Source of the DNA: Candidatus Onthousia faecigallinarum
GTDB lineage: Bacteria; Bacillota_I; Bacilli_A; RF39; UBA660
DNA length: 64,000 nucleotides
Reading direction: 5' to 3'
Assembly: GCA_018716225.1 (NCBI GenBank)
Contig: DVKE01000048.1
Location: 166-64,165 of the forward strand
Part shown: one piece after another, positions 1 through 62,805 of the stretch
Numbering within the stretch: position 1 is the stretch's first letter
Layout: each line of letters begins with the position of its first letter
Translations under genes and position numbers: made by a program
Notes under the pieces: model-generated
Database searches by the model: none
Told to the model about the DNA's origin: nothing
The model's input: only the letters and a program-made list of their open reading frames with translations

Positions 1-410
1 ACCTTTTGATAATTTCTTAACGCCTCCTTTGTACTAGTCTTTTGATATAATTTTAATAATACTTGATTTAATAAATACGGTGTTATTGCATTTAATTTAT
101 ACATACCCAACTCCTTTTTTATTGCACCAAATGTTTCTTTATACCTTCTTGCAGTTGAATATTTATACTTAATTTCAAAATATTCTTTCATCCAATAATC
201 TAAATAATCAGAGTAAAACATTTCAGATTCTTGTTTTATTCCTCCATTTATAAATTCATTATATGCTTTTTATCCTGCTGCAAATGCTTCATTCTTTGTT
301 CTAAAACCACTTTTAGTAATTTGTTTTCTTTTTCCATTTACTTTACCAACTTCAAAACCATATTGGTATACATTTCCTCGTTTTCTAATATTGATCATTT
401 TCATCATCTC
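1..410 (-). pseudogene. Tyrosine integrase copy 1, N-terminal part; the gene continues beyond the left window edge. It has an in-frame TAA (plus coordinates 270-272) after about 45 codons
   Basis: Minus-strand translation from the ATG at 408-410 gives MMKMINIRKRGNVYQYGFEVGKVNGKRKQITKSGFRTKNEAFAAG*KAYNEFINGG..MFYSDYLDYWMKEYFEIKYKYS. This parallels the integrase N-terminal ORF at 3224-3559 (MLYSEYLDYWMREYFEINYKYS). It has an arm-binding (AP2-like) N-terminal segment. Confidence 0.5.
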
Positions 411-470
411 CCTTTCTATGACCACTATTATTTTACATCAAAAAAAGTATTAACAATTACTGTCAATACT

Positions 471-1361
471 TTATTTATTAGTTAATAAATTATTTTCTTC
501 TTTTACTTGTTTTTGAAGCAACTCTAAATCTTTCATACTTTTACTATTTTGTAATGATTTCATTTGTCTTTTTGCAGATTCATTTAGTCTTATTAATCTC
601 TCTCTTTGGGATAACCCATCTTCAATTAATTCTGCACTTGTATTCTGTAAATTATTTAAAATGACTAAATGTAGTAAATCAGTATAATCTCTAATATTTC
701 CATTTTTAGCTAATTCTGGATTTTTATCTCTCCACTGTTTTGCTGTCATACCAAATAACGCTACATTTAAAATATCTGCTTCATCTGAATAAACGTGTTG
801 TTTTTGACTTTCTGTTAAATTCGGAATTATGCATTCTTTTATTGCATCAGTATGAACAACATAATTAACTTTAGATAAAAGTCTTGTTGCGCTCCATTCT
901 ATTTTATATTGATATGCTTCATTTGTTTTTAATCTTTCAAACTCTTTTATTAAATACAACTTAAATTCAGGAGATAACCAACTTGCAAATTCAAATGCAA
1001 TATCTGGATGAGCAAATGTTCCTTTACTATATTTTCCACTACTTGGGATAATACCAATAGCATTAAAATCTCTTTTCCAACGATTAGGTGTCATAGTGAA
1101 ACGATTGTATCCAACTTCATCAATTTTAATTCTGTGTGATTCCACGGAATTAAAATTTTCATTATTTAGTTCTTCCCATAAACTATAATAATCAAATGAA
1201 TTTTTATTTGACATCCAATTTCTAATTACTCCAGATGGATCCTCAGGATTTGCTTGTTTTGCTAAATCCGTTAAAGAAATATAATTAACATTTTCTACTC
1301 TTAATATACCTATTTTATTTTCTTTTACTACTATTTCAGTTGTTACTGAATCTTTTTTCAA
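471..1361 (-). CDS. KilA-N domain protein (phage antirepressor-like)
   Basis: The motif GTFAHPDIAFEFASWLSPEF matches the KilA-N signature (G.WAHPDLA.EFA.WLSPEF). It lies next to integrase remnants. Confidence 0.75.
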   Translation of the reverse strand: MKKDSVTTEIVVKENKIGILRVENVNYISLTDLAKQANPEDPSGVIRNWMSNKNSFDYYSLWEELNNENFNSVESHRIKIDEVGYNRFTMTPNRWKRDFNAIGIIPSSGKYSKGTFAHPDIAFEFASWLSPEFKLYLIKEFERLKTNEAYQYKIEWSATRLLSKVNYVVHTDAIKECIIPNLTESQKQHVYSDEADILNVALFGMTAKQWRDKNPELAKNGNIRDYTDLLHLVILNNLQNTSAELIEDGLSQRERLIRLNESAKRQMKSLQNSKSMKDLELLQKQVKEENNLLTNK

Positions 1362-1521
1362 TATTTATCTCTCCTTTCTATTTAAATTTTAAAAAATGTC
1401 AACAAATTTATTTTTGTTAACATCCTTTATTTTCAATAAATTTTGTACACTTTTTTCATAATTGGTTGACAAGCAATAAATTTATTACCTTTTCTAATAT
1501 TGATTTTTCCCTTATTTTATG

Positions 1522-1566
1522 CTACTTTCCGCAACATTGTTTATATTTTTTGCCCGAACCACATGA
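1522..1566 (-). other. Divergent duplicate of the secA 3' end (encodes ..SCGSGKKYKQCCGK*), a putative att remnant
   Basis: Minus-strand translation gives GMFSSCGSGKKYKQCCGK-stop. It is about 78% nucleotide identical to the true secA 3' end at 5321-5365 (PCPCGSGKKYKQCCGK-stop), with a shared 11-nt run CATTGTTTATA. Confidence 0.6.
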
Positions 1567-1589
1567 ACTGAACATTCCTATATTTATGT

Positions 1590-1693
1590 TATTTATTGTA
1601 TTTATAGTACTATTTGTATTTATTGTATTCCGGTATCAGGTATCATCTGTATTTATCGTATTTATAGTATTATCTGTACTTATAGTATTTATC
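1590..1693. repeat. About 11 tandem copies of a 9-bp unit GTATTTATN (iteron-like)
   Basis: Read directly: gtatttatc gtatttata gtattatct gtacttata gtatttatc, with earlier gtatttata/gtatttatt copies. Confidence 0.7.
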
Positions 1694-1697
1694 TACT

Positions 1698-1725
1698 GTG
1701 GACTATTTGTGGACATTGACCACAT
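1698..1725. repeat. TGTGGAC(T/A) x2 plus CCACAT motif cluster (reverse-complement of the TGTCCACA motifs at 5196-5262)
   Basis: tgtggacta at 1698-1706, tgtggacat at 1708-1716, accacat at 1719-1725. Confidence 0.5.
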
Positions 1726-1829
1726 TCGTTCACTGAAATAAGTATATCATATTTTTCTTTTTTATAAAATGTGCAAATTTAATAATTAATAATATCTATT
1801 TTTTATAATAATGAAATGTTACATATCTT

Positions 1830-2462
1830 TTATTTAGTTTTTATATTATTATTAGCAATATAGGGTTCATATACGTTTTTATATTTTTCTATTGTTTCAT
1901 CTACATTAAACCAATAAACATTTGTTAATATTCCATCAGATGGATCTACTTCTGTTCTTTCTAATTTACCACCTAATGCTTTTAAAGTTTTGTCTGAGCC
2001 AAGATTATTAACATCGCAATCAAGCATTACCTTTTCTAAACCTACTTTTTTTGCCTCTAACATCCCTAAATATAGATTTATCTTGTTATATCCTTTTCTT
2101 CTCTCTGTTGGTCTAATTCCATAACCTATATGTCCACCAAATCTTAGCATTGCTTCATTCAAATTCCATCTTACATTAATAGTTCCTACAATTTTATTAT
2201 CATTTTCTCTAATTAATAGAAATGTCCTGCCTTGACATCTTCCAACACTTTTAGCATATTCTTCATCTTCCATCTTTAGGCATCTATCAAGTGCTTCTTC
2301 AAAAGTATAGCCATCATAAATTTTATCTAATGAACCAGAACCATTTATATCTGATCCATATTTAACAAATTCATCAAGATATTCAATTATTTCATTTTTT
2401 CTTTCTAGTGATGGTATTTCAAAATAAAATTTTTCCACTAATATCACATCCTTATACATCAA
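1830..2462 (-). CDS. GNAT family N-acetyltransferase
   Basis: 210 aa. It has an acetyl-CoA binding-type segment (RCQGRTFLLIREND..IGYGIRPTERRKGY). It sits inside the putative island. Confidence 0.55.
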   Translation of the reverse strand: MMYKDVILVEKFYFEIPSLERKNEIIEYLDEFVKYGSDINGSGSLDKIYDGYTFEEALDRCLKMEDEEYAKSVGRCQGRTFLLIRENDNKIVGTINVRWNLNEAMLRFGGHIGYGIRPTERRKGYNKINLYLGMLEAKKVGLEKVMLDCDVNNLGSDKTLKALGGKLERTEVDPSDGILTNVYWFNVDETIEKYKNVYEPYIANNNIKTK

Positions 2463-2507
2463 TTATAACATAATTTCTTAAATAATTTACATTTTCAGAT
2501 ATCTTAC

Positions 2508-3736
2508 TTAATTCACATTTGACCTTATACTATTTTCAAATAATTTAATTACTTCATTTTTATCAACTTCTGTACTTCTAATATAATACTTTTCAGTAGT
2601 TTCTATCCTTCTATTTCCTAGTACTTCAGCAATATCTTTTATTTCACAACCATTTCTTAAACTAATAGTTGCAAAACTTCCTCTTAAATCATAAAATCTA
2701 CATTTTACTCCTAATTCATGATGGATTATTTTAAAAGGATATTTAACAATATCAGTTCCAGAATATGTTCCATCTTTCCTAGTAAATACCATATCTACTT
2801 TATTGTGTCTTGAATTACTTTCTACAATTTTATATTCAACTAACTTACCATATTTATTTTTTACTTCCTCTAAAACATGTTTTTTATAATTCTTACTGTA
2901 TTGCTTTTTATAATTATCTTGTATCTTTTTATAGTCTAGTAAAATTTTATATAAAGTGTCACATATATAAATCTCTCTTTGACTTTCAACTGTTTTGGTG
3001 GTACCTAAATACCATCTTCCTATTTCTTCTTTATCTTTTGCATACACAGTTTTATTTATTTTAATAATTCTATTATCTAAATCTATATCATTCCAAGTTA
3101 AAGCAAATACTTCGCCTGTTCTCATACCTGTATAACATGCAGTAAGAAATGCAGTTATAAATACTTTATTATTTTTAAATCTATTTAAAATTAGTTCTAT
3201 CTCTTCATTAGTATAGACATGACCTACATTGTTTTTTTTAATTCGAATGATAATACTCTAGGTATCTGTAAATCTGCTGCTGGATTATATTTAATAAATC
3301 CAAAATAATAAGTAGCATCTCTTAATGAACTTTTAATTACTTTTTGATAGTTTCTTAATGCTTCTTTTGTAGTAGAAGTTTGATATAGTCTTAGTAATGC
3401 TTGATTTAAACTAAATGAAGTAATTGCAGATAGTTTATAGTTACCTAACTCTCTTTTAATATTACCAAAAGATTCTTTATATCTTTTTGCTGTAGAATAT
3501 TTATAATTTATTTCAAAGTATTCTCTCATCCAGTAATCTAAATATTCAGAATATAACATATTACACTCTTTTGTACTTTCTCCACTAATAAATTCTTCAT
3601 ATGCTCTTTTTCCTGCTATATATGCATCTCTTTTTGTTTTAAAACCTGATTTTGATATTTGTTTTCTTTTACCATTTACCTTTCCTGCTTCAAATCTATA
3701 TTCATATAGATTATTTCTTTTTCTAATACTAATAAT
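2508..3736 (-). pseudogene. Tyrosine recombinase / phage integrase copy 2, disrupted by at least two frameshifts
   Basis: The C-terminal catalytic ORF (2508-3125, stop-to-stop up to 3257) has the R..HxxR..Y motifs (HHELGVKCRFYDLRGSFAT..NRRIETTEKYY). The SAM-like N-terminal domain is a separate ORF (3224-3559) in another frame. The junction lies in an A8/T8 homopolymer (3231-3240). The arm-binding N-terminus (GIIISIRKRNNLYEYRFEAGKVNGKRKQ) is out of frame with the ATG at 3734-3736. Confidence 0.75.
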
Positions 3737-3743
3737 AATTCCT

Positions 3744-3777
3744 CATCTCCTTTACAAAAAAATGTTAGCACATACAT
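3744..3777 (-). terminator. Rho-independent terminator of trpS
   Basis: Minus strand reads AAATGTTAG-loop-CTAACATTT followed by a U7 run. It lies directly downstream of the trpS stop. Confidence 0.55.
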
Positions 3778-3793
3778 ACTAACATTTATTATT

Positions 3794-4786
3794 TTAAATA
3801 CTAAGTCCTACTTTTTCTTTTACTATTTCCATTTTTTTAGAAGCATATACTCTAGCCTTATTAGCACCATTTGTTAATATTTCTTTTAAATGCTTTTCAT
3901 CATTTCTATATTGATAAAATTTGTCTTGAATATCTTTAATAAATTTACAAACACTATCAGCAACTTCAATTTTAAAATCTTTATAATTATAATCCTTGTA
4001 TTTTTCATTTGCTTCCTCAATAGTCATATTGTTAACTACACATACTAATGATATTAAATTAGATATTCCTGGTTTATTATTTTCATCATAATAAACTTTA
4101 CCTTCACTATCGGTACAAGCAGACATTATTTTCTTTCTTGTTATTTCTATATCATCTAACATAAATATTGTTCCTTTATCATCCTTTGGAGCAGATTTAC
4201 TCATTTTAATTGTTGGATCTTGTAAGTTCATTATTTTTGCACCAATTTTTGGAATTTGATATTCTGGTAATTTGAAAGTATTACCATAAATATTATTAAA
4301 TCTCTCTCCAAAATCTCTAGTTTTTTCAATGTGTTGTCTTTGATCTGCACCTACTGGTACTATTTCAGCATCATATAATAATATATCTGCTGCCATTAAA
4401 GTTGGATAAATAAATAAGCCCATATCTTTTTCACTTTTTCCTAATTGTTGTTTTTTTGATTTAAACTGTGTCATTCTAGATAATTCACCAACACTACATT
4501 GAAATGACATTAAAAATCCTAAATTACAATGTTCTAAAACATCACTTTGCATAAATAATGCTGTATTTTTAATATCAATTCCACAAGCCATATACATTGC
4601 TGTTATATCTAATATGTTATTTCTTATTTCTTTTGGATTAATATAAGTTGTTAATCCATGAATATCTGCAATAAATATTAAGGAATTATATTTGTATTGT
4701 TGTTCTACAAATCCTTTTATACCTCCAATATAATTTGCTAAAGTTATACTTCCTGTAGGTCTTACCCCAGTAATCATTGTTTTCAT
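3794..4786 (-). CDS. trpS: Tryptophan--tRNA ligase
   Basis: 330 aa. It has the N-terminal class I signature region (TGVRPTGSITLANYIG) and a KMSKS motif. Similarity to B. subtilis TrpRS runs throughout. Confidence 0.9.
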   Translation of the reverse strand: MKTMITGVRPTGSITLANYIGGIKGFVEQQYKYNSLIFIADIHGLTTYINPKEIRNNILDITAMYMACGIDIKNTALFMQSDVLEHCNLGFLMSFQCSVGELSRMTQFKSKKQQLGKSEKDMGLFIYPTLMAADILLYDAEIVPVGADQRQHIEKTRDFGERFNNIYGNTFKLPEYQIPKIGAKIMNLQDPTIKMSKSAPKDDKGTIFMLDDIEITRKKIMSACTDSEGKVYYDENNKPGISNLISLVCVVNNMTIEEANEKYKDYNYKDFKIEVADSVCKFIKDIQDKFYQYRNDEKHLKEILTNGANKARVYASKKMEIVKEKVGLSI

Positions 4787-4799
4787 TAAATTTTCCTTC

Positions 4800-5045
4800 T
4801 TTCTTAATTTTTTATATTTTAAATCAATGATTAATATAACTTACACCATCGTTTCACATATTTTTCCATATAACCATCTCCTTCTTATAAATAAAAAAGA
4901 TTCCAGTCCTAAAAATTAAGACAAGAATCTTGTGCCACCTAATAATAGTTTCATTCCATATACAATCATATATGTTCTCTTGATAACGGGTAGAAACTCC
5001 CGATTTTTCATACTTTAATTAATTTCTGAAAAACTCTCTTTGGTC
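4800..5045 (-). promoter_or_regulatory. T-box riboswitch leader of trpS (Trp-specific)
   Basis: Minus-strand RNA contains an AGAGAG box. It has a T-box-like UAUUAGGUGGCACAAG (reverse complement of 4924-4945), where UGGC would pair with the tRNA-Trp G73-CCA end. A terminator hairpin AGAUUC..GAAUCU plus U6 follows (4888-4930). Confidence 0.5.
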
Positions 5046-5195
5046 CATTCAATATTCATCCATTGCAACTTTCCATCAACCAGTTGCTTTCTATAAATTT
5101 CATAAATATCTACTTCTCCAAATCACTGATTTAAAATATGGTTAGATTATATCACTAAACTTGCATTTTGTCAAAAATCAAAGTAATAAAAAAGG

Positions 5196-5262
5196 ATGTC
5201 CACATTTAAAATGTTGTCCACATCCTTATTTTACTTAGGTTTTCTCCACATTACGTGGACAA
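5196..5262. repeat. Cluster of four (A/T)TGTCCACA-like 9-mers (DnaA-box-like or arm-type sites)
   Basis: atgtccaca 5196-5204, ttgtccaca 5214-5222, ttctccaca 5242-5250, and ttgtccacg on the opposite strand at 5254-5262. Confidence 0.5.
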
Positions 5263-5320
5263 GTTATAAAACTTGAACCAACTTAATTTTTTTGAATTTC
5301 TCATTTTTCCTTATTTTATC

Positions 5321-7807
5321 TTACTTTCCACAGCATTGTTTATACTTCTTGCCACTGCCACATGGACAAGGATTATTTCGACCTATCTTCTTTACTTTTT
5401 TTGGTTGCTGCTTCGTTGCCCCTTTATCTTCATTGGTATGTTGTGTCTTCGCTACTTGCTTTCTTTCCACATTTTGCCGAATTTCCGCTTTTAATAAGAA
5501 CACAGTAATATCCCGATCAATCTTTTGTAACATTTGATCAAATAACTCAAAACCTTCGGTTGTATAAGCACGAAGAGGATCATCTTGACCATATTGTCTT
5601 AAATAAATACCCTCTCTTAAATGGCTCATCCGATTAATTTGTTCCATCCAATAATTATCAATAACTTGTAGAGATAAAGCCTTTTCAAACTCATTACTAA
5701 TTTCAACCGGAACGTCTTTAATCTTCTCCTCATATTCTGCTTTTGCTTTTTCATATAAGAATTCAATCATGTCTTTTTCTTTTAAGGAAGCAATATCTTC
5801 TTCTTTAATATCATGACGGAACAAATTTTGATTGGCAAAATCAGCAATATCATGAGCATCTTTTTCCGAAATATCACCATCTACAGTATGGGATTTTACT
5901 AAATCCATAACATGATTATACATAGAATTTAAAACGGTTTGATGAATAGAATCACTATCTAAAATCTCGTTTCTTTTTCCATACATGATTTCCCGTTGAT
6001 TATTCATAACATCATCATATTGTAATAATTGTTTTCTGGCATCAAAGTTATTTCCCTCTACTCGTTTTTGAGCCGTACTGATTGCCTTCGTAAAAGTTTT
6101 ACTTTGAATTGGTTGATCTCCAAATCCAAAAGATTTCATTAACTCCCGAATTCTTTCACTACCAAAACGTAGCATTAAATCGTCTTCCATGGAAACAAAG
6201 AATTGAGTAAAACCTGGATCCCCTTGTCGTCCAGAACGACCACGCAACTGATTATCAATACGACGAGATTCATGTCGCTCCGTACCAATTACACAAAGGC
6301 CACCCAAAGCTCTAATTTCATCAGATAATTTAATATCGGTACCACGACCAGCCATATTAGTAGCAATTGTTACTGATTTATGTTGTCCAATTTTTGAAAT
6401 AATTTCTGCTTCACGAGCATGATTTTTTGCATTTAATACCTCATGAGGAATATGAGCTTTTTTCAATAAATTACTAATAAGTTCACTCGTTTCAATCGCA
6501 ATAGTACCAACCAAAACCGGTTGTCCTTTTTCATATCTTTCTTTGATTTCTTTAATAATAGCCTTATATTTTGCTTCTTTTGTTGCATAAACAAGATCTG
6601 GTGCATCAATACGAATAATTGGTTTATTTGTAGGAATCTCAATAACATACATATTATAAATATTACGAAATTCTTCTTCTTCTGTTTTCGCAGTACCAGT
6701 CATACCAGCAAGCTTTTTATACATCCGGAATAAATTTTGGAAAGTAATGGTCGCTAAAGTCTTTGTCTCTTGATTAATTTTAACACCTTCTTTAGCCTCG
6801 ATCGCTTGATGTAATCCATCACTATAAGCACGACCTTTCATCAACCGTCCGGTAAAAGGATCTACAATGACAATCGCTCCATCTTGAACAACATAATCAA
6901 CATCTAATTTCATTGAATAGTTTGCCTTTAAAGCTTGATTGATGTAATGAACTAAAGTAGCATTTTCAAGTTCATATAAATTCTTAACATGAAACTTCTT
7001 CTCTGCTTTCTCACTACCTAAATCTGTTAAACTAACACTTTTTGTCGTTTCATCATAAATATAATCCTCATCTTCTTTTAAACTTTTCGCAAAACGATCA
7101 GCATCTATATAAAGATTAGCACTATTCATCTGTCCTCCAGAAATAATAAGAGGAGTTCTCGCTTCATCAATTAAAACCGAATCCACTTCATCCACAATGG
7201 CAAAATTAAGAGGCCGTTGTACTCTATTTTCTTTTCGAATCACCATATTATCTCTTAAATAATCAAATCCCACTTCATTATTCGTAGAATATAAAATATC
7301 ACATTGGTAAGCTTCTTGCTTCTCCTTAGCGCTCATATCTCTTGTATTAACACCAACAGTTAATCCTAAAAACCGATGAATTCCTCCCATCCATTCAGCA
7401 TCACGACCAGCCAAATATTCATTAACAGTAATAATATGAACACCATCACCCGTTAAAGCATTTAAATAAGCAGGAAGAACAGCCGTTAACGTTTTACCTT
7501 CACCAGTTTTCATTTCAGCAATATTACCATAATGAATCGCTAAAGCACCTAAAATTTGAACATAGAAAGGCTTTTCTCCAATAACTCGAAAAGCAGCTTC
7601 TCTTGCTACTGCAAAAGCTTCTACTAAAATATCTTCCAAAATTTCTCCTTTGGATAATCTTTCTTTAAATTCTACTGTTTTATGTTTTAAATCATCATCA
7701 CTTAATTTGCTCATATCATCATCAAGAGCAATAACTTCATCAGCTAACTTTTCAAACCGTTTTAATTCTTTATACTCTCGATCAAACAATTTACTAAATA
7801 TACCCAT
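5321..7807 (-). CDS. secA: Preprotein translocase ATPase SecA
   Basis: 828 aa. It has DEAD-like motor domains and a C-terminal zinc-binding tail CPCGSGKKYKQCCGK. Confidence 0.95.
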   Translation of the reverse strand: MGIFSKLFDREYKELKRFEKLADEVIALDDDMSKLSDDDLKHKTVEFKERLSKGEILEDILVEAFAVAREAAFRVIGEKPFYVQILGALAIHYGNIAEMKTGEGKTLTAVLPAYLNALTGDGVHIITVNEYLAGRDAEWMGGIHRFLGLTVGVNTRDMSAKEKQEAYQCDILYSTNNEVGFDYLRDNMVIRKENRVQRPLNFAIVDEVDSVLIDEARTPLIISGGQMNSANLYIDADRFAKSLKEDEDYIYDETTKSVSLTDLGSEKAEKKFHVKNLYELENATLVHYINQALKANYSMKLDVDYVVQDGAIVIVDPFTGRLMKGRAYSDGLHQAIEAKEGVKINQETKTLATITFQNLFRMYKKLAGMTGTAKTEEEEFRNIYNMYVIEIPTNKPIIRIDAPDLVYATKEAKYKAIIKEIKERYEKGQPVLVGTIAIETSELISNLLKKAHIPHEVLNAKNHAREAEIISKIGQHKSVTIATNMAGRGTDIKLSDEIRALGGLCVIGTERHESRRIDNQLRGRSGRQGDPGFTQFFVSMEDDLMLRFGSERIRELMKSFGFGDQPIQSKTFTKAISTAQKRVEGNNFDARKQLLQYDDVMNNQREIMYGKRNEILDSDSIHQTVLNSMYNHVMDLVKSHTVDGDISEKDAHDIADFANQNLFRHDIKEEDIASLKEKDMIEFLYEKAKAEYEEKIKDVPVEISNEFEKALSLQVIDNYWMEQINRMSHLREGIYLRQYGQDDPLRAYTTEGFELFDQMLQKIDRDITVFLLKAEIRQNVERKQVAKTQHTNEDKGATKQQPKKVKKIGRNNPCPCGSGKKYKQCCGK

Positions 7808-7890
7808 TTTAACATCTCCTTGCTCTCATTATTGTAACAAAAAAAGGGCGCTTTAGAAAGCTTTTCCCTTCATTTTTCTTAAGTTTTTAT

Positions 7891-8418
7891 TTATTCAGAC
7901 TCAATCAATCCATAACCGCCATCTTTTCTTTTATAAATGACATTATCTTTATCGGTATCTACATTTTTAAACAGATAAAACTGATGACCCAAAAGCTCCA
8001 TTTGTAAAATGGCTTCTTCTTCATCCATTGGTTTTACTTCTACCACTTTTCTTTTAATAATCTTATTTTGAGGTTCATCCTCACTAGAAAATTCTGTTTC
8101 ATTAAAGTCGATTACTGATTTTTCCTGACGAGCTTTTAATTTTGTTTTATTTTTTCGAATCTGACGTTCTATCACATCAACCGCTTTATCTACCGCTGCA
8201 TAAAAATCATCTTGATTTTCTTCAGAACGTATAATGAATTTATGTAGTGGTATCGTTATTTCTACAATTTGACGATGACCATGAACCTTGACAACGACAG
8301 TCGCTCTTACTTCATCCTTATTTTCTAGATATTTATCTAGTTTTTTTAACTTTTCCTCAATATAAGACTTCATTGCCTCTGTAACATTCAATTTGTCTCC
8401 ACGTATAATTATTTGCAT
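7891..8418 (-). CDS. hpf: Ribosome hibernation promoting factor (long form)
   Basis: 175 aa with S30AE/YfiA N-domain similarity. It lies upstream of secA as in Bacillus. Confidence 0.85.
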   Translation of the reverse strand: MQIIIRGDKLNVTEAMKSYIEEKLKKLDKYLENKDEVRATVVVKVHGHRQIVEITIPLHKFIIRSEENQDDFYAAVDKAVDVIERQIRKNKTKLKARQEKSVIDFNETEFSSEDEPQNKIIKRKVVEVKPMDEEEAILQMELLGHQFYLFKNVDTDKDNVIYKRKDGGYGLIESE

Positions 8419-8489
8419 AGAATATCACCTTCCTTAATTGAATTATAGCATAAGGGAAGAGAAAAAGCTAGGGCAAGAAAAAAGAACCG

Positions 8490-8708
8490 CTATTCTTGTC
8501 TGGCTGGTTCTTTTATAGGAGTTACATCAACTGCTTGATAGCCCTTGCTTGTTTCAAGCAAAGTAAACTCTACATACTGACCTTCAGTTAACGTCTTATA
8601 ACCCTCACAGTTAATTGTTGAGTAATGAACAAATATATCTTCACCCTTTTTGTAGTCAATAAAGCCATACCCCTTTTCATTATTGAACCACTTTACTCTT
8701 CCAATCAC
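8490..8708 (-). CDS. Cold-shock protein (CspA family)
   Basis: The sequence [24 protein letters not shown] is a classic CSD. Confidence 0.9.
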
Positions 8709-8844
8709 GCTACAATCACCTCACATTCTTTTTAGTCTACCACCTTGTATTTCCAAATGTTGTAAACAGAGCATAACAAAGAACCAAAAATAAAGATAGT
8801 TTTTTTCTTTAAAAAGTCATTTCTTTTCTCTAAATGGCATCTTC

Positions 8845-8879
8845 AACAAGATTTTGTCGAAATATGTCGAATCTTGTTG
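8845..8879. promoter_or_regulatory. 9-bp inverted repeat enclosing two tandem TGTCGAA heptamers (Spo0A-box-like), in the cspA/agrB divergent intergenic region
   Basis: The sequence is caacaagat tt TGTCGAA ata TGTCGAA tcttgttg. The heptamers are 10 bp apart. Confidence 0.45.
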
Positions 8880-8959
8880 TAACAACCAGATATTATAAAA
8901 AAAATAAGGAAAAACAAAGAAAAAAAGTAGTACTCTTTTTGATAGATAAGGTGATACAT

Positions 8960-9550
8960 ATGAAAGAAAAATTCTTAAAAAGTTCTATGAATTTTATTAC
9001 CAAAAACGAAACAATAGATGAGGAAACAAAAGAAAAAATAGCTTTTGGCTTAGAAGGACTATATCTTTCTGTTACAAAGCTAATAATTATCAATCTACTA
9101 GCCTTTTCATTAGGAATTTGGCTAGAATTTGTAATTTTCTTAGCGTTGTTCAATTTTTTAAGATTTTTTGGATTCGGAGCTCATGCCAACAATTCAAAAA
9201 CTTGTCTCATTACATCATCCCTTTTACTTGTTGGAACACCCTATCTATTTTTAAAATTATCTTTGCCGACATATCTTATTTACACCTTATGTACTACTTC
9301 CATTATTATTTTTATCCTTTATGCACCAGCAGATACAGAAAAAAGACCATTAACAAATAAAAAGAAAAGGAAGATAAGAAAATTTATGACTGTTATAGTT
9401 GCTTGTATTTTTACCATCCTTATTGTTATACTTAAAAATCACACCATAAAGATGTTATTACTTAGTAGTCTCATAGTAGAAAGCATTATGGTTTTACCCA
9501 TTACTTATAAAATATTAAAAATACCGTATCGGAACTATTTAAAGGTTTAA
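8960..9550 (+). CDS. agrB: AgrB-like autoinducing-peptide processing peptidase / membrane protein
   Basis: 197 aa from the ATG at 8960 (RBS AAGGTGA). It is a multi-TM protein. The GAHANNSKTC segment places His and Cys 7 residues apart, as in S. aureus AgrB H77/C84. Confidence 0.75.
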   Translation: MKEKFLKSSMNFITKNETIDEETKEKIAFGLEGLYLSVTKLIIINLLAFSLGIWLEFVIFLALFNFLRFFGFGAHANNSKTCLITSSLLLVGTPYLFLKLSLPTYLIYTLCTTSIIIFILYAPADTEKRPLTNKKKRKIRKFMTVIVACIFTILIVILKNHTIKMLLLSSLIVESIMVLPITYKILKIPYRNYLKV

Positions 9551-16514: not shown

Positions 16515-16711
16515 TTTATCTCTCCTTCCGCCATGATAAATTAATTACCATAGTAATTCAATTCGCTAATTAATATATCAGATTTTTTTTAAATTTGCAA
16601 GGCTTTTTTCACTCACCAAATATTCCTTAAACTCATCCGATACATTTATCATTATCTATTCAATTCTCAAAATCTTGTACTGTCAAACTCTTTTGCAAAA
16701 GAGTCAACAGA

Positions 16712-37775: not shown

Positions 37776-39371
37776 CTATAAAGAAGGAAGCACTCCTGGT
37801 CCAAGTGGTAAACCTATCAAATACCAACAAACCGTTAAGAAAATCCAAGTAAAGGCAATCACACCAAAGTAGGGTATTACATAACCAATACTTTCCCGAA
37901 TAGAAATTGGCTTTTTCTTATCTTGATTATAAATATTAAGATATCCTATATAAATGGCAAACCCAGCTAAAAGAGGTGTAATTCCAGCCGTAATAGAAGT
38001 TCCAACTCTTAAAATAAATTGGGCAAATTGAGGTGATAAGTTAGATTGCATAAAAGCCGGAACGACCACAGGAGAAAAAATTTCCCATTTGGCAGTAGGA
38101 GTTGTAATAAACAAATTCGCAATTCCAATAATAATAATAGTAAAAATAATTAAAGGAATACCAGTAAAATTAAGACTGCCTAATAAGTTAGCTAATAAGC
38201 AACCAATAACAGTACCAATATTAGTTTGTTTAAACACCGAAATAAATTGACTAACGACAAATAACAATATTAACATTTCACCCATTGGAAGAAAAGTCTC
38301 TTTACATCCCTGAATAAGTTCTTTGTCATTCTTAATTGTCTTTGCCCCAATTCCATAAGCAAGGCCCATACCACAAAACAATAAAGACATCATATAAGTA
38401 AAACCATCTTGAAAATAAGAATTACTACCAAATAACTGTCCCAAATAAGTATCCTCATTCATATCAAGTAACATTCCGGACATAGGAAGATTAGGTATCA
38501 ACATATATATAAACAAAAGAATAATAACAATACCTGTAATATAAGCAAACTTTAAACCTCTTTTTTCTCGTTTTTCCTTTTCGATCTTCATCTGCTCTAA
38601 TTCTTCTTCATCTATAATTTGTAACTCTTCCGTTTTAGCAGTTTCTTCTTTTTCTTTCATTTTACCAATTCGGGGAGCAATAATTTTTTCAATAACGATA
38701 GTACCAATCAATGGTAGCAAGAAAGAAAAAGCAATAATAATGAACAAGTTAGATGTTAAACTAATATGAGTTGAATCATCAATCAAACGAGCAGCAGACG
38801 TTGTATAAGGAATTAAATTAACATCTAAAGATCCAACAAATAAGGATACGCCATATCCAAAACTAACCCCACAAAAAGCAGTAATAATTCCTAAAAAAGG
38901 ATGCCTATTATTATATTGATATATCATAGCAGCCAACGGAATTAATAAAACATAACCAACTTCATTAATTAAAGAAGAAATAGTCGCTAAAAACAAAACA
39001 ATAAAAGTTAGTACTCTTTTATCAATTTTACTTAATTTTCTCTTACAAAAAGTATCAAGAAAACCAGTTGCAGTTGCAACACTAACTCCAATTAAAGTAA
39101 TAATTAACATTCCAAGAGGAGCAAAACTAAGAAAATCTCGAAGAGCATTACTAAAAATATATTTCATGCCATCAAAACTTAGCATATTATTAACAGTAAC
39201 TAAGGTTGAATTCAACTTATAAGTTTGAGTATTTATTTCACTATAAGTTCCTTGCATCTGTAGACCGGATAAAATAGCACTAAGAATAATAACAAAAATG
39301 GTTAACAACAAAAAAACGGTAATAGGATGAAAATAAAATTTTTTCAATTTTAATTTTTTCTTTTCCTTCAT
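37776..39371 (-). CDS. AbgT family transporter
   Basis: 531 aa polytopic protein. The SFAPLGMLIITLIGVSVATATGF block is AbgT/YdaH-like. Confidence 0.6.
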   Translation of the reverse strand: MKEKKKLKLKKFYFHPITVFLLLTIFVIILSAILSGLQMQGTYSEINTQTYKLNSTLVTVNNMLSFDGMKYIFSNALRDFLSFAPLGMLIITLIGVSVATATGFLDTFCKRKLSKIDKRVLTFIVLFLATISSLINEVGYVLLIPLAAMIYQYNNRHPFLGIITAFCGVSFGYGVSLFVGSLDVNLIPYTTSAARLIDDSTHISLTSNLFIIIAFSFLLPLIGTIVIEKIIAPRIGKMKEKEETAKTEELQIIDEEELEQMKIEKEKREKRGLKFAYITGIVIILLFIYMLIPNLPMSGMLLDMNEDTYLGQLFGSNSYFQDGFTYMMSLLFCGMGLAYGIGAKTIKNDKELIQGCKETFLPMGEMLILLFVVSQFISVFKQTNIGTVIGCLLANLLGSLNFTGIPLIIFTIIIIGIANLFITTPTAKWEIFSPVVVPAFMQSNLSPQFAQFILRVGTSITAGITPLLAGFAIYIGYLNIYNQDKKKPISIRESIGYVIPYFGVIAFTWIFLTVCWYLIGLPLGPGVLPSL

Positions 39372-39372
39372 A

Positions 39373-39567
39373 TTATACCTCTTTCATCAACACTTTTTTT
39401 ATTTTTTTATTAAATTCAATTCGAGGAATAAAAATCATTCGACCACAACCACAGCATTTAATTTTAATATCTGCCCCTAACCGAATAATTTCCCATTCGT
39501 TACTACCACAAGGATGCTTTTTTTTCATAATAACATGGCTTCCAAGCGTATATTCTTTATTTTCCAT
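39373..39567 (-). CDS. DUF951-like small protein
   Basis: 64 aa with CGS..CCGCG cysteines. Confidence 0.4.
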   Translation of the reverse strand: MENKEYTLGSHVIMKKKHPCGSNEWEIIRLGADIKIKCCGCGRMIFIPRIEFNKKIKKVLMKEV

Positions 39568-62658: not shown

Positions 62659-62687
62659 TTGAAAAAATATAAAAAAAAAGGTAATAT
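62659..62687 (+). promoter_or_regulatory. Sigma-A-type promoter of the SRP RNA gene (TTGAAA-17-TAATAT)
   Basis: -35 TTGAAA at 62659-62664, a 17-nt spacer, and -10 TAATAT at 62682-62687. Confidence 0.5.
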
Positions 62688-62691
62688 AAAT

Positions 62692-62771
62692 ACGTGCAAT
62701 AAGTAAATGTGGAATCAGGTCAGGATGGAAACATAGCAGCCTTAACATAATTTACTTATGTGCACTTTTTT
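62692..62771 (+). ncRNA. ffs: Signal recognition particle RNA (small 4.5S type)
   Basis: It has the domain IV signature CAGGUCAGG-AU-GGAA-ACAU-AGCAGCC. A long terminal helix pairs GUGCAAUAAGUAAAU with AUUUACUUAUGUGCAC. A U7 run follows. Confidence 0.7.
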
Positions 62772-62805
62772 TGATCTTGAATTACTATAAAAGGAATGTG
62801 ATAAA

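Follow-up and report, generated by a model that had tools for sequence, protein, structure and literature searches.

Behind the secA gene in a 64,000-nucleotide stretch of Candidatus Onthousia faecigallinarum (contig DVKE01000048.1; hereafter the window, meaning the whole stretch), two copies of the last secA codons are found among a cluster of small genes, which an earlier note made from the sequence alone had assigned to integrative islands in a state of decay. The region analysed in detail was window 1-8700, in which all genes lie on the minus strand. In the direction of transcription, hpf (7891-8418) and secA are followed by a T-box leader, trpS, the pieces of an integrase gene (2508-3740), a GNAT acetyltransferase gene, an A/T-rich repeat block (around 1581-1692), a second secA end, a KilA-N gene and another integrase gene running from 425 past base 1, and the T-box-trpS pair, GNAT, KilA-N, integrases and repeats were all found where the note had placed them. 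The G+C content drops at the secA end, to 25.4% in 1-5320 as compared to 30.9% elsewhere in the window. The features are as follows, the presumed element next to secA being called element 2 and the one behind it element 1 (aa, amino acids; nt, nucleotides).

5321..7807 (-): secA, 828 aa, with Pfam SecA_DEAD, SecA_PP_bind, SecA_SW and SEC-C
5358..5364 (-): core and predicted crossover CATGTGG, attL of element 2 on its secA side, where host sequence switches to element sequence in every host
5321..5365 (-): replacement secA tail of element 2, PCGSGKKYKQCCGK and stop
5188..5320 (-): left (secA-proximal) arm of element 2, with conserved ATAAAATAAGG at 5309-5319 and a hairpin with U-run at 5188-5225
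5146..5174 (-): sigma-70 promoter, TTGACA, 17 nt, TG-n-TATAAT, 12/12 consensus matches
4914..5135 (-): T-box leader, RF00230, specifier UGG at 5045-5047, then A
3794..4786 (-): trpS, tryptophanyl-tRNA synthetase (TrpRS) of 330 aa, intact, cargo of element 2, TIGR00233 with 308 bits (cut-off 177)
2508..3752 (-): integrase 2 (int2), with open reading frame (ORF) 1 arm-binding and SAM-like, ORF2 catalytic, A8 run at 3232-3239
1830..2462 (-): GNAT acetyltransferase, 210 aa, Pfam Acetyltransf_1 and Acetyltransf_3, in the second cargo slot of element 2
1566..1700 (-): right arm of element 2, in which ATAAATAC is repeated five times (1598-1692)
1559..1565 (-): second core copy CATGTGG at the junction of element 2 and element 1, where three left contexts (window, L002, L004 secA) converge exactly
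1522..1566 (-): spare secA tail of element 1, SCGSGKKYKQCCGK and stop, found unchanged in L004 as the functional end of secA
1391..1521 (-): left arm of element 1, with ATAAAATAAGG at 1510-1520 and a terminator hairpin with U-run at 1391-1425
471..1361 (-): KilA-N protein, 296 aa, Pfam KilA-N 1.5e-17, cargo of element 1
1..425 (-): integrase 1 (int1), N-terminal part, cut by the window edge, with TAA at 270-272

The two tails (5321-5365 and 1522-1566) are identical at 35 of 45 positions, and the similarity spans 79 nt (60/79 between 1490-1568 and 5289-5367). As the best chance matches in 200 first-order Markov simulations of the 64-kb window reached 29 (mean 25.6) for a 45-mer and 46 for a 79-mer, the repeat described in the earlier note is real by the significance check which the note had itself named. 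A third, weak tail-like match at 39332-39407 was dismissed as A/T-rich low-complexity sequence that does not encode SEC-C. From the second codon onward, the 14 codons differ at nine positions and every change is synonymous, among them Ser AGT to TCG and stop TAA to TAG, which indicates that the duplicate tail has been retained as coding sequence. The final 14 codons and the stop of the window secA are supplied by element 2, and despite the insertion the SEC-C motif recognized by Pfam is retained in SecA. In tail-bearing relatives, ATAAAATAAGG is conserved behind almost every tail.

Relatives were gathered by looking in public assemblies for exact matches to the KilA-N protein and to TrpRS, and 16 loci were obtained. 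In contigs of the same species, with hpf 99.8-100% and the secA body 99.5-99.8% identical, three different inserts are situated between secA and the KilA-N unit, namely a 1.1-kb cassette with a GNAT gene only (L002, L006), the 3.8-kb trpS unit (window, L010, L011, L014) or a larger element that encodes an excisionase as well as an intact integrase of 425 aa and precedes the GNAT cassette (L001, L003, L005). Compared to L002 and L006, the window is only 85-86% identical in the tail and first arm bases (5399-5309), as opposed to 99.5-99.8% in the secA body. Locus L004 belongs to another organism, with a secA at 68% identity that encodes a SecA of 910 aa, and contains window positions 1568-1 at 99.4% identity fused directly to secA. 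The tail at 1522-1566, which the earlier note had called a remnant, is indeed a second tail copy, but as the working end of the 910-aa SecA in L004 it is more than a mere remnant. Element 2 with T-box, trpS, integrase, GNAT and right arm recurs at 99.6-100% identity in L008 and L012, the secA genes of which are 72-75% identical on the DNA level, incomplete copies reside behind secA in two or more additional backgrounds (L007/L015, L009, L016), and the exact TrpRS protein is encoded 3' of secA in at least four host backgrounds. Since several of the host-element junctions were assembled independently more than once (L007 and L015; L008 and L052; L010, L011 and L014), an assembly artefact is unlikely. 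Arrays hold up to five tails (L020, L059). Insertion at the secA 3' end with a replacement tail, as the note had it, is thus backed by strain occupancy and cross-host copies, and two tandem integrations at one attachment (att) site by the intervals between tails, which differ among strains, and by element 1, which is joined directly to secA in L004.

The unit with the intact integrase (L001:1-8650, also in L003 and L005) exceeds 8.6 kb and encodes cI/Cro-like helix-turn-helix proteins, a sigma-70 region-4-like protein, PemK and the excisionase; alr, VanZ and an acyltransferase are located upstream, and its left end lies beyond view, secA not being reached within 10 kb. Just left of the position at which the window starts, an insertion sequence (IS) element with a DDE_Tnp_1 transposase splits int1 in the same species (L002:11529-12806). 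L002 lacks the distal part of element 1, for which L004 has GNAT, arm and tail, and continues with mgsA as its next gene. The IS element and the missing far end probably explain why contigs such as L010 break there.

The position of the crossover could be derived from seven aligned att copies. Left of C[A/T]TG[T/C]GG, the sequence belongs to the secA body or else to an arm with many TAAATA-type repeats, to its right follow the tail, the stop, ATAAAATAAGG and then element-specific sequence, and the core itself covers the Pro-Cys-Gly codons of the SecA CPCG zinc-finger motif. The right arm of the trpS unit joins another tail in each of the window, L008 and L012, and the three tails diverge from the first codon past TGT. 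As a sample independent of the tails, a metagenome collection was scanned with the last 26 nt of the right arm (1565-1590, the last base being shared with the core), which occur exactly in 14 contigs and are followed there by no fewer than 11 different tails, the partner always switching between [A/T]TG[T/C] and GG. Altogether 17 independent right-arm junctions all break at this position, which places the predicted crossover at 5358-5364 and 1559-1565, in C[A/T]TG[T/C]GG. The 11-nt block CATTGTTTATA shared by both tails (1535-1545 and 5334-5344), the crossover candidate of the earlier note, is ruled out because all 17 junctions of the one arm with its 14 or more different tails switch about 25 nt upstream of it. 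With a crossover inside the Pro-Cys-Gly codons, each element must carry the following 13 codons, the stop and a terminator. The tail start of the window (5341-5359, the first 18 nt past the core) reads GGCAGTGGCAAGAAGTAT, that of L008, L016 and L017 GGTTCGGGCAAAAAGTAC. In a comparison with L008, the element of which is otherwise 99.7% identical, 5 of 18 nt differ at the start of the window secA tail, and the remaining tail and the arm are identical.

The locus is very probably a tandem array of two small integrative elements, site-specifically inserted into the last 14 secA codons by a phage-type tyrosine integrase. Upon integration, the element-borne tail would become the working end of secA and the old end would be displaced downstream as a spare. 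Element 2 (5364-1566) would comprise tail, terminator, a first slot with promoter, Trp T-box and trpS, the integrase, a second slot with the GNAT gene and the ATAAATAC arm, and element 1 (from 1565 to past base 1) tail, terminator, the KilA-N gene and the integrase, with element 2 as the later arrival. Terminator-type hairpins are predicted by RNA folding 3' of both tails, and the hairpin with its U-run plausibly serves as a secA terminator brought along by the element. The ATAAATAC motif is present five times within the 95 nt of 1598-1692, always on the minus strand, and 17 times in the whole window, where seven copies are expected; these repeats probably represent arm-type integrase binding sites recognized by the N-terminal arm-binding domain. 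The sequence 5180-3806 with promoter, leader and trpS, 78-94% identical to copies in other contexts, fills the gap between the terminator and the ribosome binding site of the integrase. Units that share the integrase type and the arm have this first slot either empty or occupied by different genes, so that it behaves as a cargo slot.

The spare ends are conserved as protein-coding sequence. In the arm-selected sample 14 of 14 tails are open with the four zinc ligands kept, and pN/pS (nonsynonymous over synonymous polymorphism) amounts to 0.10 over 46 distinct spare tails, a set picked by motif whose value is biased downwards, and is the same for 22 secA-attached tails. A spare tail would become the working secA end once the upstream unit leaves or its own unit moves, and with such a reuse upon excision or movement only units with a usable tail would persist. 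Selection acts here on a sequence that is currently unexpressed.

Pfam recognizes the catalytic Phage_integrase domain at 2508-3125, the SAM-like Phage_int_SAM_3 domain at 3224-3559 and the arm-binding Arm-DNA-bind_4 domain at 270-425, int1 and int2 being 77% identical on the DNA level (1-300 and 3339-3638). Reconstructed Int2 aligns end to end with intact relatives of 409-426 aa, conserves the Arg, the YDLRG box and the Tyr and, with at most 33% identity to Clostridioides difficile phage integrases, is an ordinary phage-type enzyme. Its frame 1 ends with ...SFELKK at GAA TTA AAA AAA AC, with the A8 run at 3232-3239, and NNVGHVYTNEE continues in the -1 frame; TT[A AAA AAA]C constitutes an X XXY YYZ heptamer in the zero frame, and the -1 reading ELKK-NNVGHVY aligns with the intact relatives. 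Among 18 distinct integrase copies, 14 with a mutual divergence up to a dS (synonymous divergence) of about 1, int1 of L004 included, have A8 at the same position and in the same frame relation. A run of A9 is found in three unsplit copies (L045-L048, L049 and L053, the last with a stop just upstream of the run), A7 in one integrase lineage, and A10 in none of the 18. Between A8 lineages, with dS 0.2-1.0, the ratio of nonsynonymous to synonymous divergence (dN/dS) is 0.06-0.19 for ORF1 and 0.14-0.37 for ORF2, and in L054 the -1 frame relation survives a nearby 3-nt deletion. With low dN/dS on both halves, the split gene has not drifted as a pseudogene. Plain decay, as which the earlier note had read a multiply frameshifted integrase, does not describe a gene whose main frameshift, the A8 run, recurs in 14 diverged copies and whose two halves are both under purifying selection. 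The A-run is probably an on/off switch rather than a sign of plain decay: A9 would be in frame and A8 out of frame, and the usual A8 state would yield only the DNA-binding N-terminal half.

Both window integrases are probably inactive at present. The in-frame stop which the note had reported in int1 is there, as TAA at 270-272 in place of a Gln in the intact orthologue P0144, and judged by this nonsense codon int1 is clearly dead; in same-species contigs it is additionally cut by the IS element. An ATG is missing from int2, where AAGGAG is followed after 7-8 nt by ATT, a feature common to the trpS-unit lineage, and a private His to Asn change affects the conserved LGH (codon 2613-2615). With both integrases disabled, the array is probably immobile here unless helped in trans.

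Several observations do not fit easily with such mobile and switchable elements. The 5/18 mismatch between the tail starts of window and L008 looks as if an additional gene-conversion or mosaic step were required. An attP or circular junction, the own arm followed by 40-46 nt and the own left arm, was not found in the metagenome collection, which holds only 14 copies of the arm, and all related sequences are metagenome assemblies. Among ORFs and Pfam matches, neither element contains a gene for an excisionase, a relaxase or replication. Downstream of the A-run, a conserved RNA structure with a stimulatory role is absent (RNAalifold -1.06 kcal/mol over 10 diverged copies, no meaningful covariation), and the AAA codon preference of an A+T-rich genome could alone keep a Lys-Lys-Asn run homopolymeric. 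A classical -1 frameshift stimulator 3' of the A-run was rejected, as RNAalifold found neither a conserved hairpin nor a pseudoknot. Slipped-strand switching and/or transcriptional slippage is preferred to a ribosomal frameshift signal of the classical type, and plain decay, repeated in descendants of A9 forms, might also account for the A8 state. That the units form an undescribed family of miniature elements in uncultured gut Bacilli, with the secA zinc finger as att site, working spare gene ends, an A8/A9-throttled integrase of which the DNA-binding half would be the default product and the full recombinase a rare product of slippage, integron-like arrays of defence genes and self-regulated synthetase genes (T-box-trpS and apparently tyrS) shuttling between genera, can in this full extent be proposed only tentatively.

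Among the alternatives, the units might be dead, cis-mobilizable relics, with A8 as an ordinary inactivation and the cassettes moved in trans by an intact related integrase. In favour of this, stretches of nine A mutate frequently and are prone to contraction, close relatives with an unsplit gene are known (P0136-P0144), and an intact integrase with an excisionase is located in the same arrays (L001, L021, L061). Additional lesions have accumulated in individual copies, with the TAA of int1, the His to Asn change and the missing ATG of int2, truncations in L009 and L019 and the stop in L053, and the A-run goes without a stimulatory structure downstream. On the other hand, both ORFs have stayed open at dN/dS of 0.06-0.37 and dS up to 1.0 between A8 lineages, the frame relation was kept after the deletion in L054, A8 without any A10 predominates among the distinct copies, and the intact integrases of the arrays use another arm repeat, GATAATAT instead of ATAAATA. 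On balance, we regard relics as unlikely, with a real share of the probability nonetheless.

Cassettes might also have been exchanged by homologous recombination or transformation via tails and arm motifs, with no site-specific recombination involved. The tails indeed share 35-45 nt at approximately 80% identity plus ATAAAATAAGG, the window secA tail is a mosaic relative to L008, the attP junction is absent from the metagenome collection, and relatives carry competence-type pilus genes (T2SSE/T2SSF in L004). Homologous exchange would, however, scatter breakpoints along the tail and require a second homologous flank, whereas in 17/17 right-arm junctions the break falls within the same 4-5 nt, where the homology has its left boundary and beyond which arm and secA are entirely dissimilar, and every complete element has an integrase and arm-type repeats beside the core. 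This renders such an exchange quite improbable, and site-specific integration remains our preferred explanation.

That trpS is cargo is supported by its distribution. TrpRS is 91-100% identical across genomes in which SecA is only 66-79% identical. T-box-trpS units at 76-88% identity are found at unrelated sites in related genomes. An arrangement named in the earlier note as speaking against insertion, trpS behind secA with no integrase, literally exists in L025, L027 and L033, where T-box-trpS follows secA, no same-strand integrase adjoins and prfB is located further downstream in L027 and L033, but it does not refute the insertion because TrpRS is 91-93% identical there as compared to 66-79% for SecA, and same-species strains have no trpS at this site. 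That trpS is ancestral between secA and prfB, with the second tail a local duplication and the integrases inserted secondarily, as these three loci and the 76-88% identity typical of an ordinary lineage trpS would allow, has next to no probability, given that L002 and L006 of the same species hold no trpS within 12 kb downstream of secA, that the conservation of TrpRS exceeds that of SecA, that the 3.8-kb unit including its non-coding arms is 99.6-100% identical across hosts and that trpS is the second or third cassette of the array in L009, L013 and L020.

By these comparisons trpS is assigned to the cargo of element 2, and it looks like the ordinary trpS of the lineage caught in a cargo slot. 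No second trpS was found within the 64-kb window; as strains of the L002 type must hold trpS elsewhere, the window copy is probably an extra one. Its T-box leader scores 81.5 bits, below the Rfam gathering score of 93, and the T-box sequence proper is divergent, but the leader matches the full model (1-219, E = 2.8e-17) with a UGG-A specifier. A second aminoacyl-tRNA synthetase gene appears to travel in secA arrays too, as a tyrS (412 aa) located few kb downstream of trpS is 96% identical between L007:15772-17010 and L022:11518-12753. TrpRS keeps the His which we take to be the residue whose change to Asn confers indolmycin resistance, compared by eye only. Carriage by phages is not supported, a TrpRS relative being absent from the viral contigs searched.

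The KilA-N protein matches the PADLOC defence candidate PDC-S22 over its full length (3.3e-108, residues 8-281 of 296, profile 5-275 of 281), for which a defence role may be predicted, and also PHROG 2657, a transcriptional regulator. For the GNAT protein, no sequence match in the PDB and no NCBIfam or PADLOC family was found; its structural model (predicted local distance difference test, pLDDT, 87) suggests a fold that matches RimL, RimJ, MccE, SpeG and ArsN about equally (template modelling score 0.55-0.6). A cargo directed against aminoacyl-tRNA-synthetase inhibitors, with MccE/MccF-like GNAT proteins or peptidases alongside a resistant TrpRS, was considered and is unsupported, the GNAT fold match being generic. 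Other secA units carry a PD-T4-6/mad6-like kinase, PDC-M59A/B (a 340-aa protein and a Fic protein), a NucC-like PD-(D/E)xK nuclease, MqsR with a SocA-type partner, PemK, NUDIX proteins, peptidases and several GNATs, and as far as profile matches predict, the array is largely a collection of defence candidates. A 363-aa cargo protein (L007:12970-14061) combines an N-terminal region like the RNA-polymerase recycling factor HelD (8.4e-35) with a C-terminal GNAT domain.

Integration at the 3' end of a gene with a replacement end is known from e14 in icd of Escherichia coli, ICESt1 and ICESt3 in fda and Tn5801-type elements in guaA. The secA elements share with e14, ICESt1 and Tn5801 the tyrosine integrase, a crossover in the coding region, the supply of a gene end that resembles the old one without matching it exactly and keeps the gene intact, and the displaced end as a direct repeat, but differ by the secA zinc finger as target and by units of about 3.6-4.5 kb devoid of phage, conjugation and replication genes. 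Three integrase domains, direct repeats, a reconstituted target and repeat-bounded differences between strains place them among tyrosine-integrase elements of gene 3' ends. Genes of integrative and conjugative or mobilizable elements (ICE/IME), a relaxase, oriT, coupling protein or type IV secretion, were not found in 1-5320, where ORFs of at least 40 aa encode integrase, KilA-N, GNAT and TrpRS, nor in the complete units of L004, L008 and L045. Units of 3.6-4.5 kb with one or two cargo genes also fall outside the class of satellites similar to phage-inducible chromosomal islands (PICI), which measure about 10-15 kb and combine an integrase with genes for a repressor, primase or replication and interference with packaging.

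Tandem accretion of streptococcal ICE/IME and cis-mobilizable elements (CIMEs) has been reviewed (PMC5704250, citing Pavlovic 2004 and Bellanger 2011). Common to both systems are serial integration at one att site, with functional and decayed elements between att copies, and units that lack an integrase, here the 1.1-kb GNAT cassette of L002, which with att on both sides and no recombination gene fits the CIME definition. Whether the two elements of the window are CIMEs depends on whether A8 alleles yield any integrase. Unlike the streptococcal arrays, the secA units come without a conjugation or mobilization module and with up to five att copies, of which each spare encodes a usable gene end. 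Cargo elements piled up at one gene have further been described as Prochlorococcus tycheposons (bioRxiv 10.1101/2020.12.28.424599) and Dehalococcoides ssrA islands (PMC3146451). Those, too, are small tyrosine-recombinase elements of streamlined genomes in which newcomers displace older ones and leave partial targets and fragmented integrases, but they target tRNA or tmRNA genes, whereas the secA repeats are constrained on the amino acid level (pN/pS 0.10) and the integrase family differs.

Co-oriented single-gene cassettes between recombination sites at a fixed chromosomal point are reminiscent of integrons. Each complete secA unit, however, encodes an integrase of its own, attC hairpins are absent, the sites are ends of a coding gene, and matches to integron-integrase models stay below threshold (56.7 bits at a cut-off of 265 and 34 bits at a cut-off of 435). 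Transposases of the IS1 and IS3 families are produced via -1 frameshifting at A-rich heptamers, and homopolymers are familiar as 'contingency loci'. As in IS1 and IS3, an A-run (A AAA AAA, zero frame) lies between a DNA-binding ORF and a catalytic one in the -1 frame, and unsplit variants deviate by just one A; unlike there, a tyrosine integrase is encoded rather than a DDE transposase, and a downstream stimulatory structure is lacking. In the literature no report of secA as an att site was found, and the searchable literature held nothing relevant on frameshift control of tyrosine integrases. A known mechanism, integrase action at a gene 3' end with tandem accretion, is encountered at a new target and with an unusual run in the integrase.

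The secA end emerges as a hotspot for gene collection and exchange in uncultured small-genome gut Bacilli, and many of the exchanged genes are anti-phage candidates (PDC-S22, PD-T4-6-like kinases, PDC-M59, NucC-like nucleases). A gene of the essential type such as trpS as cargo, with its own promoter and T-box, affects the use of single-copy markers in the binning of metagenome-assembled genomes and in phylogeny. It also raises the question of selection for an extra or a replacement TrpRS. If the A8/A9 run does act as a switch, it would constitute a way to throttle a tyrosine integrase for which no description was found in the searchable literature.

Upstream of the array, an agr-like quorum-sensing cluster with AgrB, a short peptide ORF, a HATPase_c_5 kinase and a LytTR regulator (8834-9550, plus strand, and upstream) adjoins csp-hpf-secA and is kept in several related hosts. 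Elsewhere in the window, Rfam matches above the gathering score are an L31-Firmicutes ribosomal leader (16522-16553, minus strand) and a small SRP RNA (62683-62781, plus strand). Motifs of the type GTCCAC/GTGGAC occur in both arms of element 2 (5255-5275, 5188-5225 and 1695-1730) as well as in the left arms of other units (L053, L054, L061); some of the copies form the terminator hairpin, and the others might be a protein binding site.

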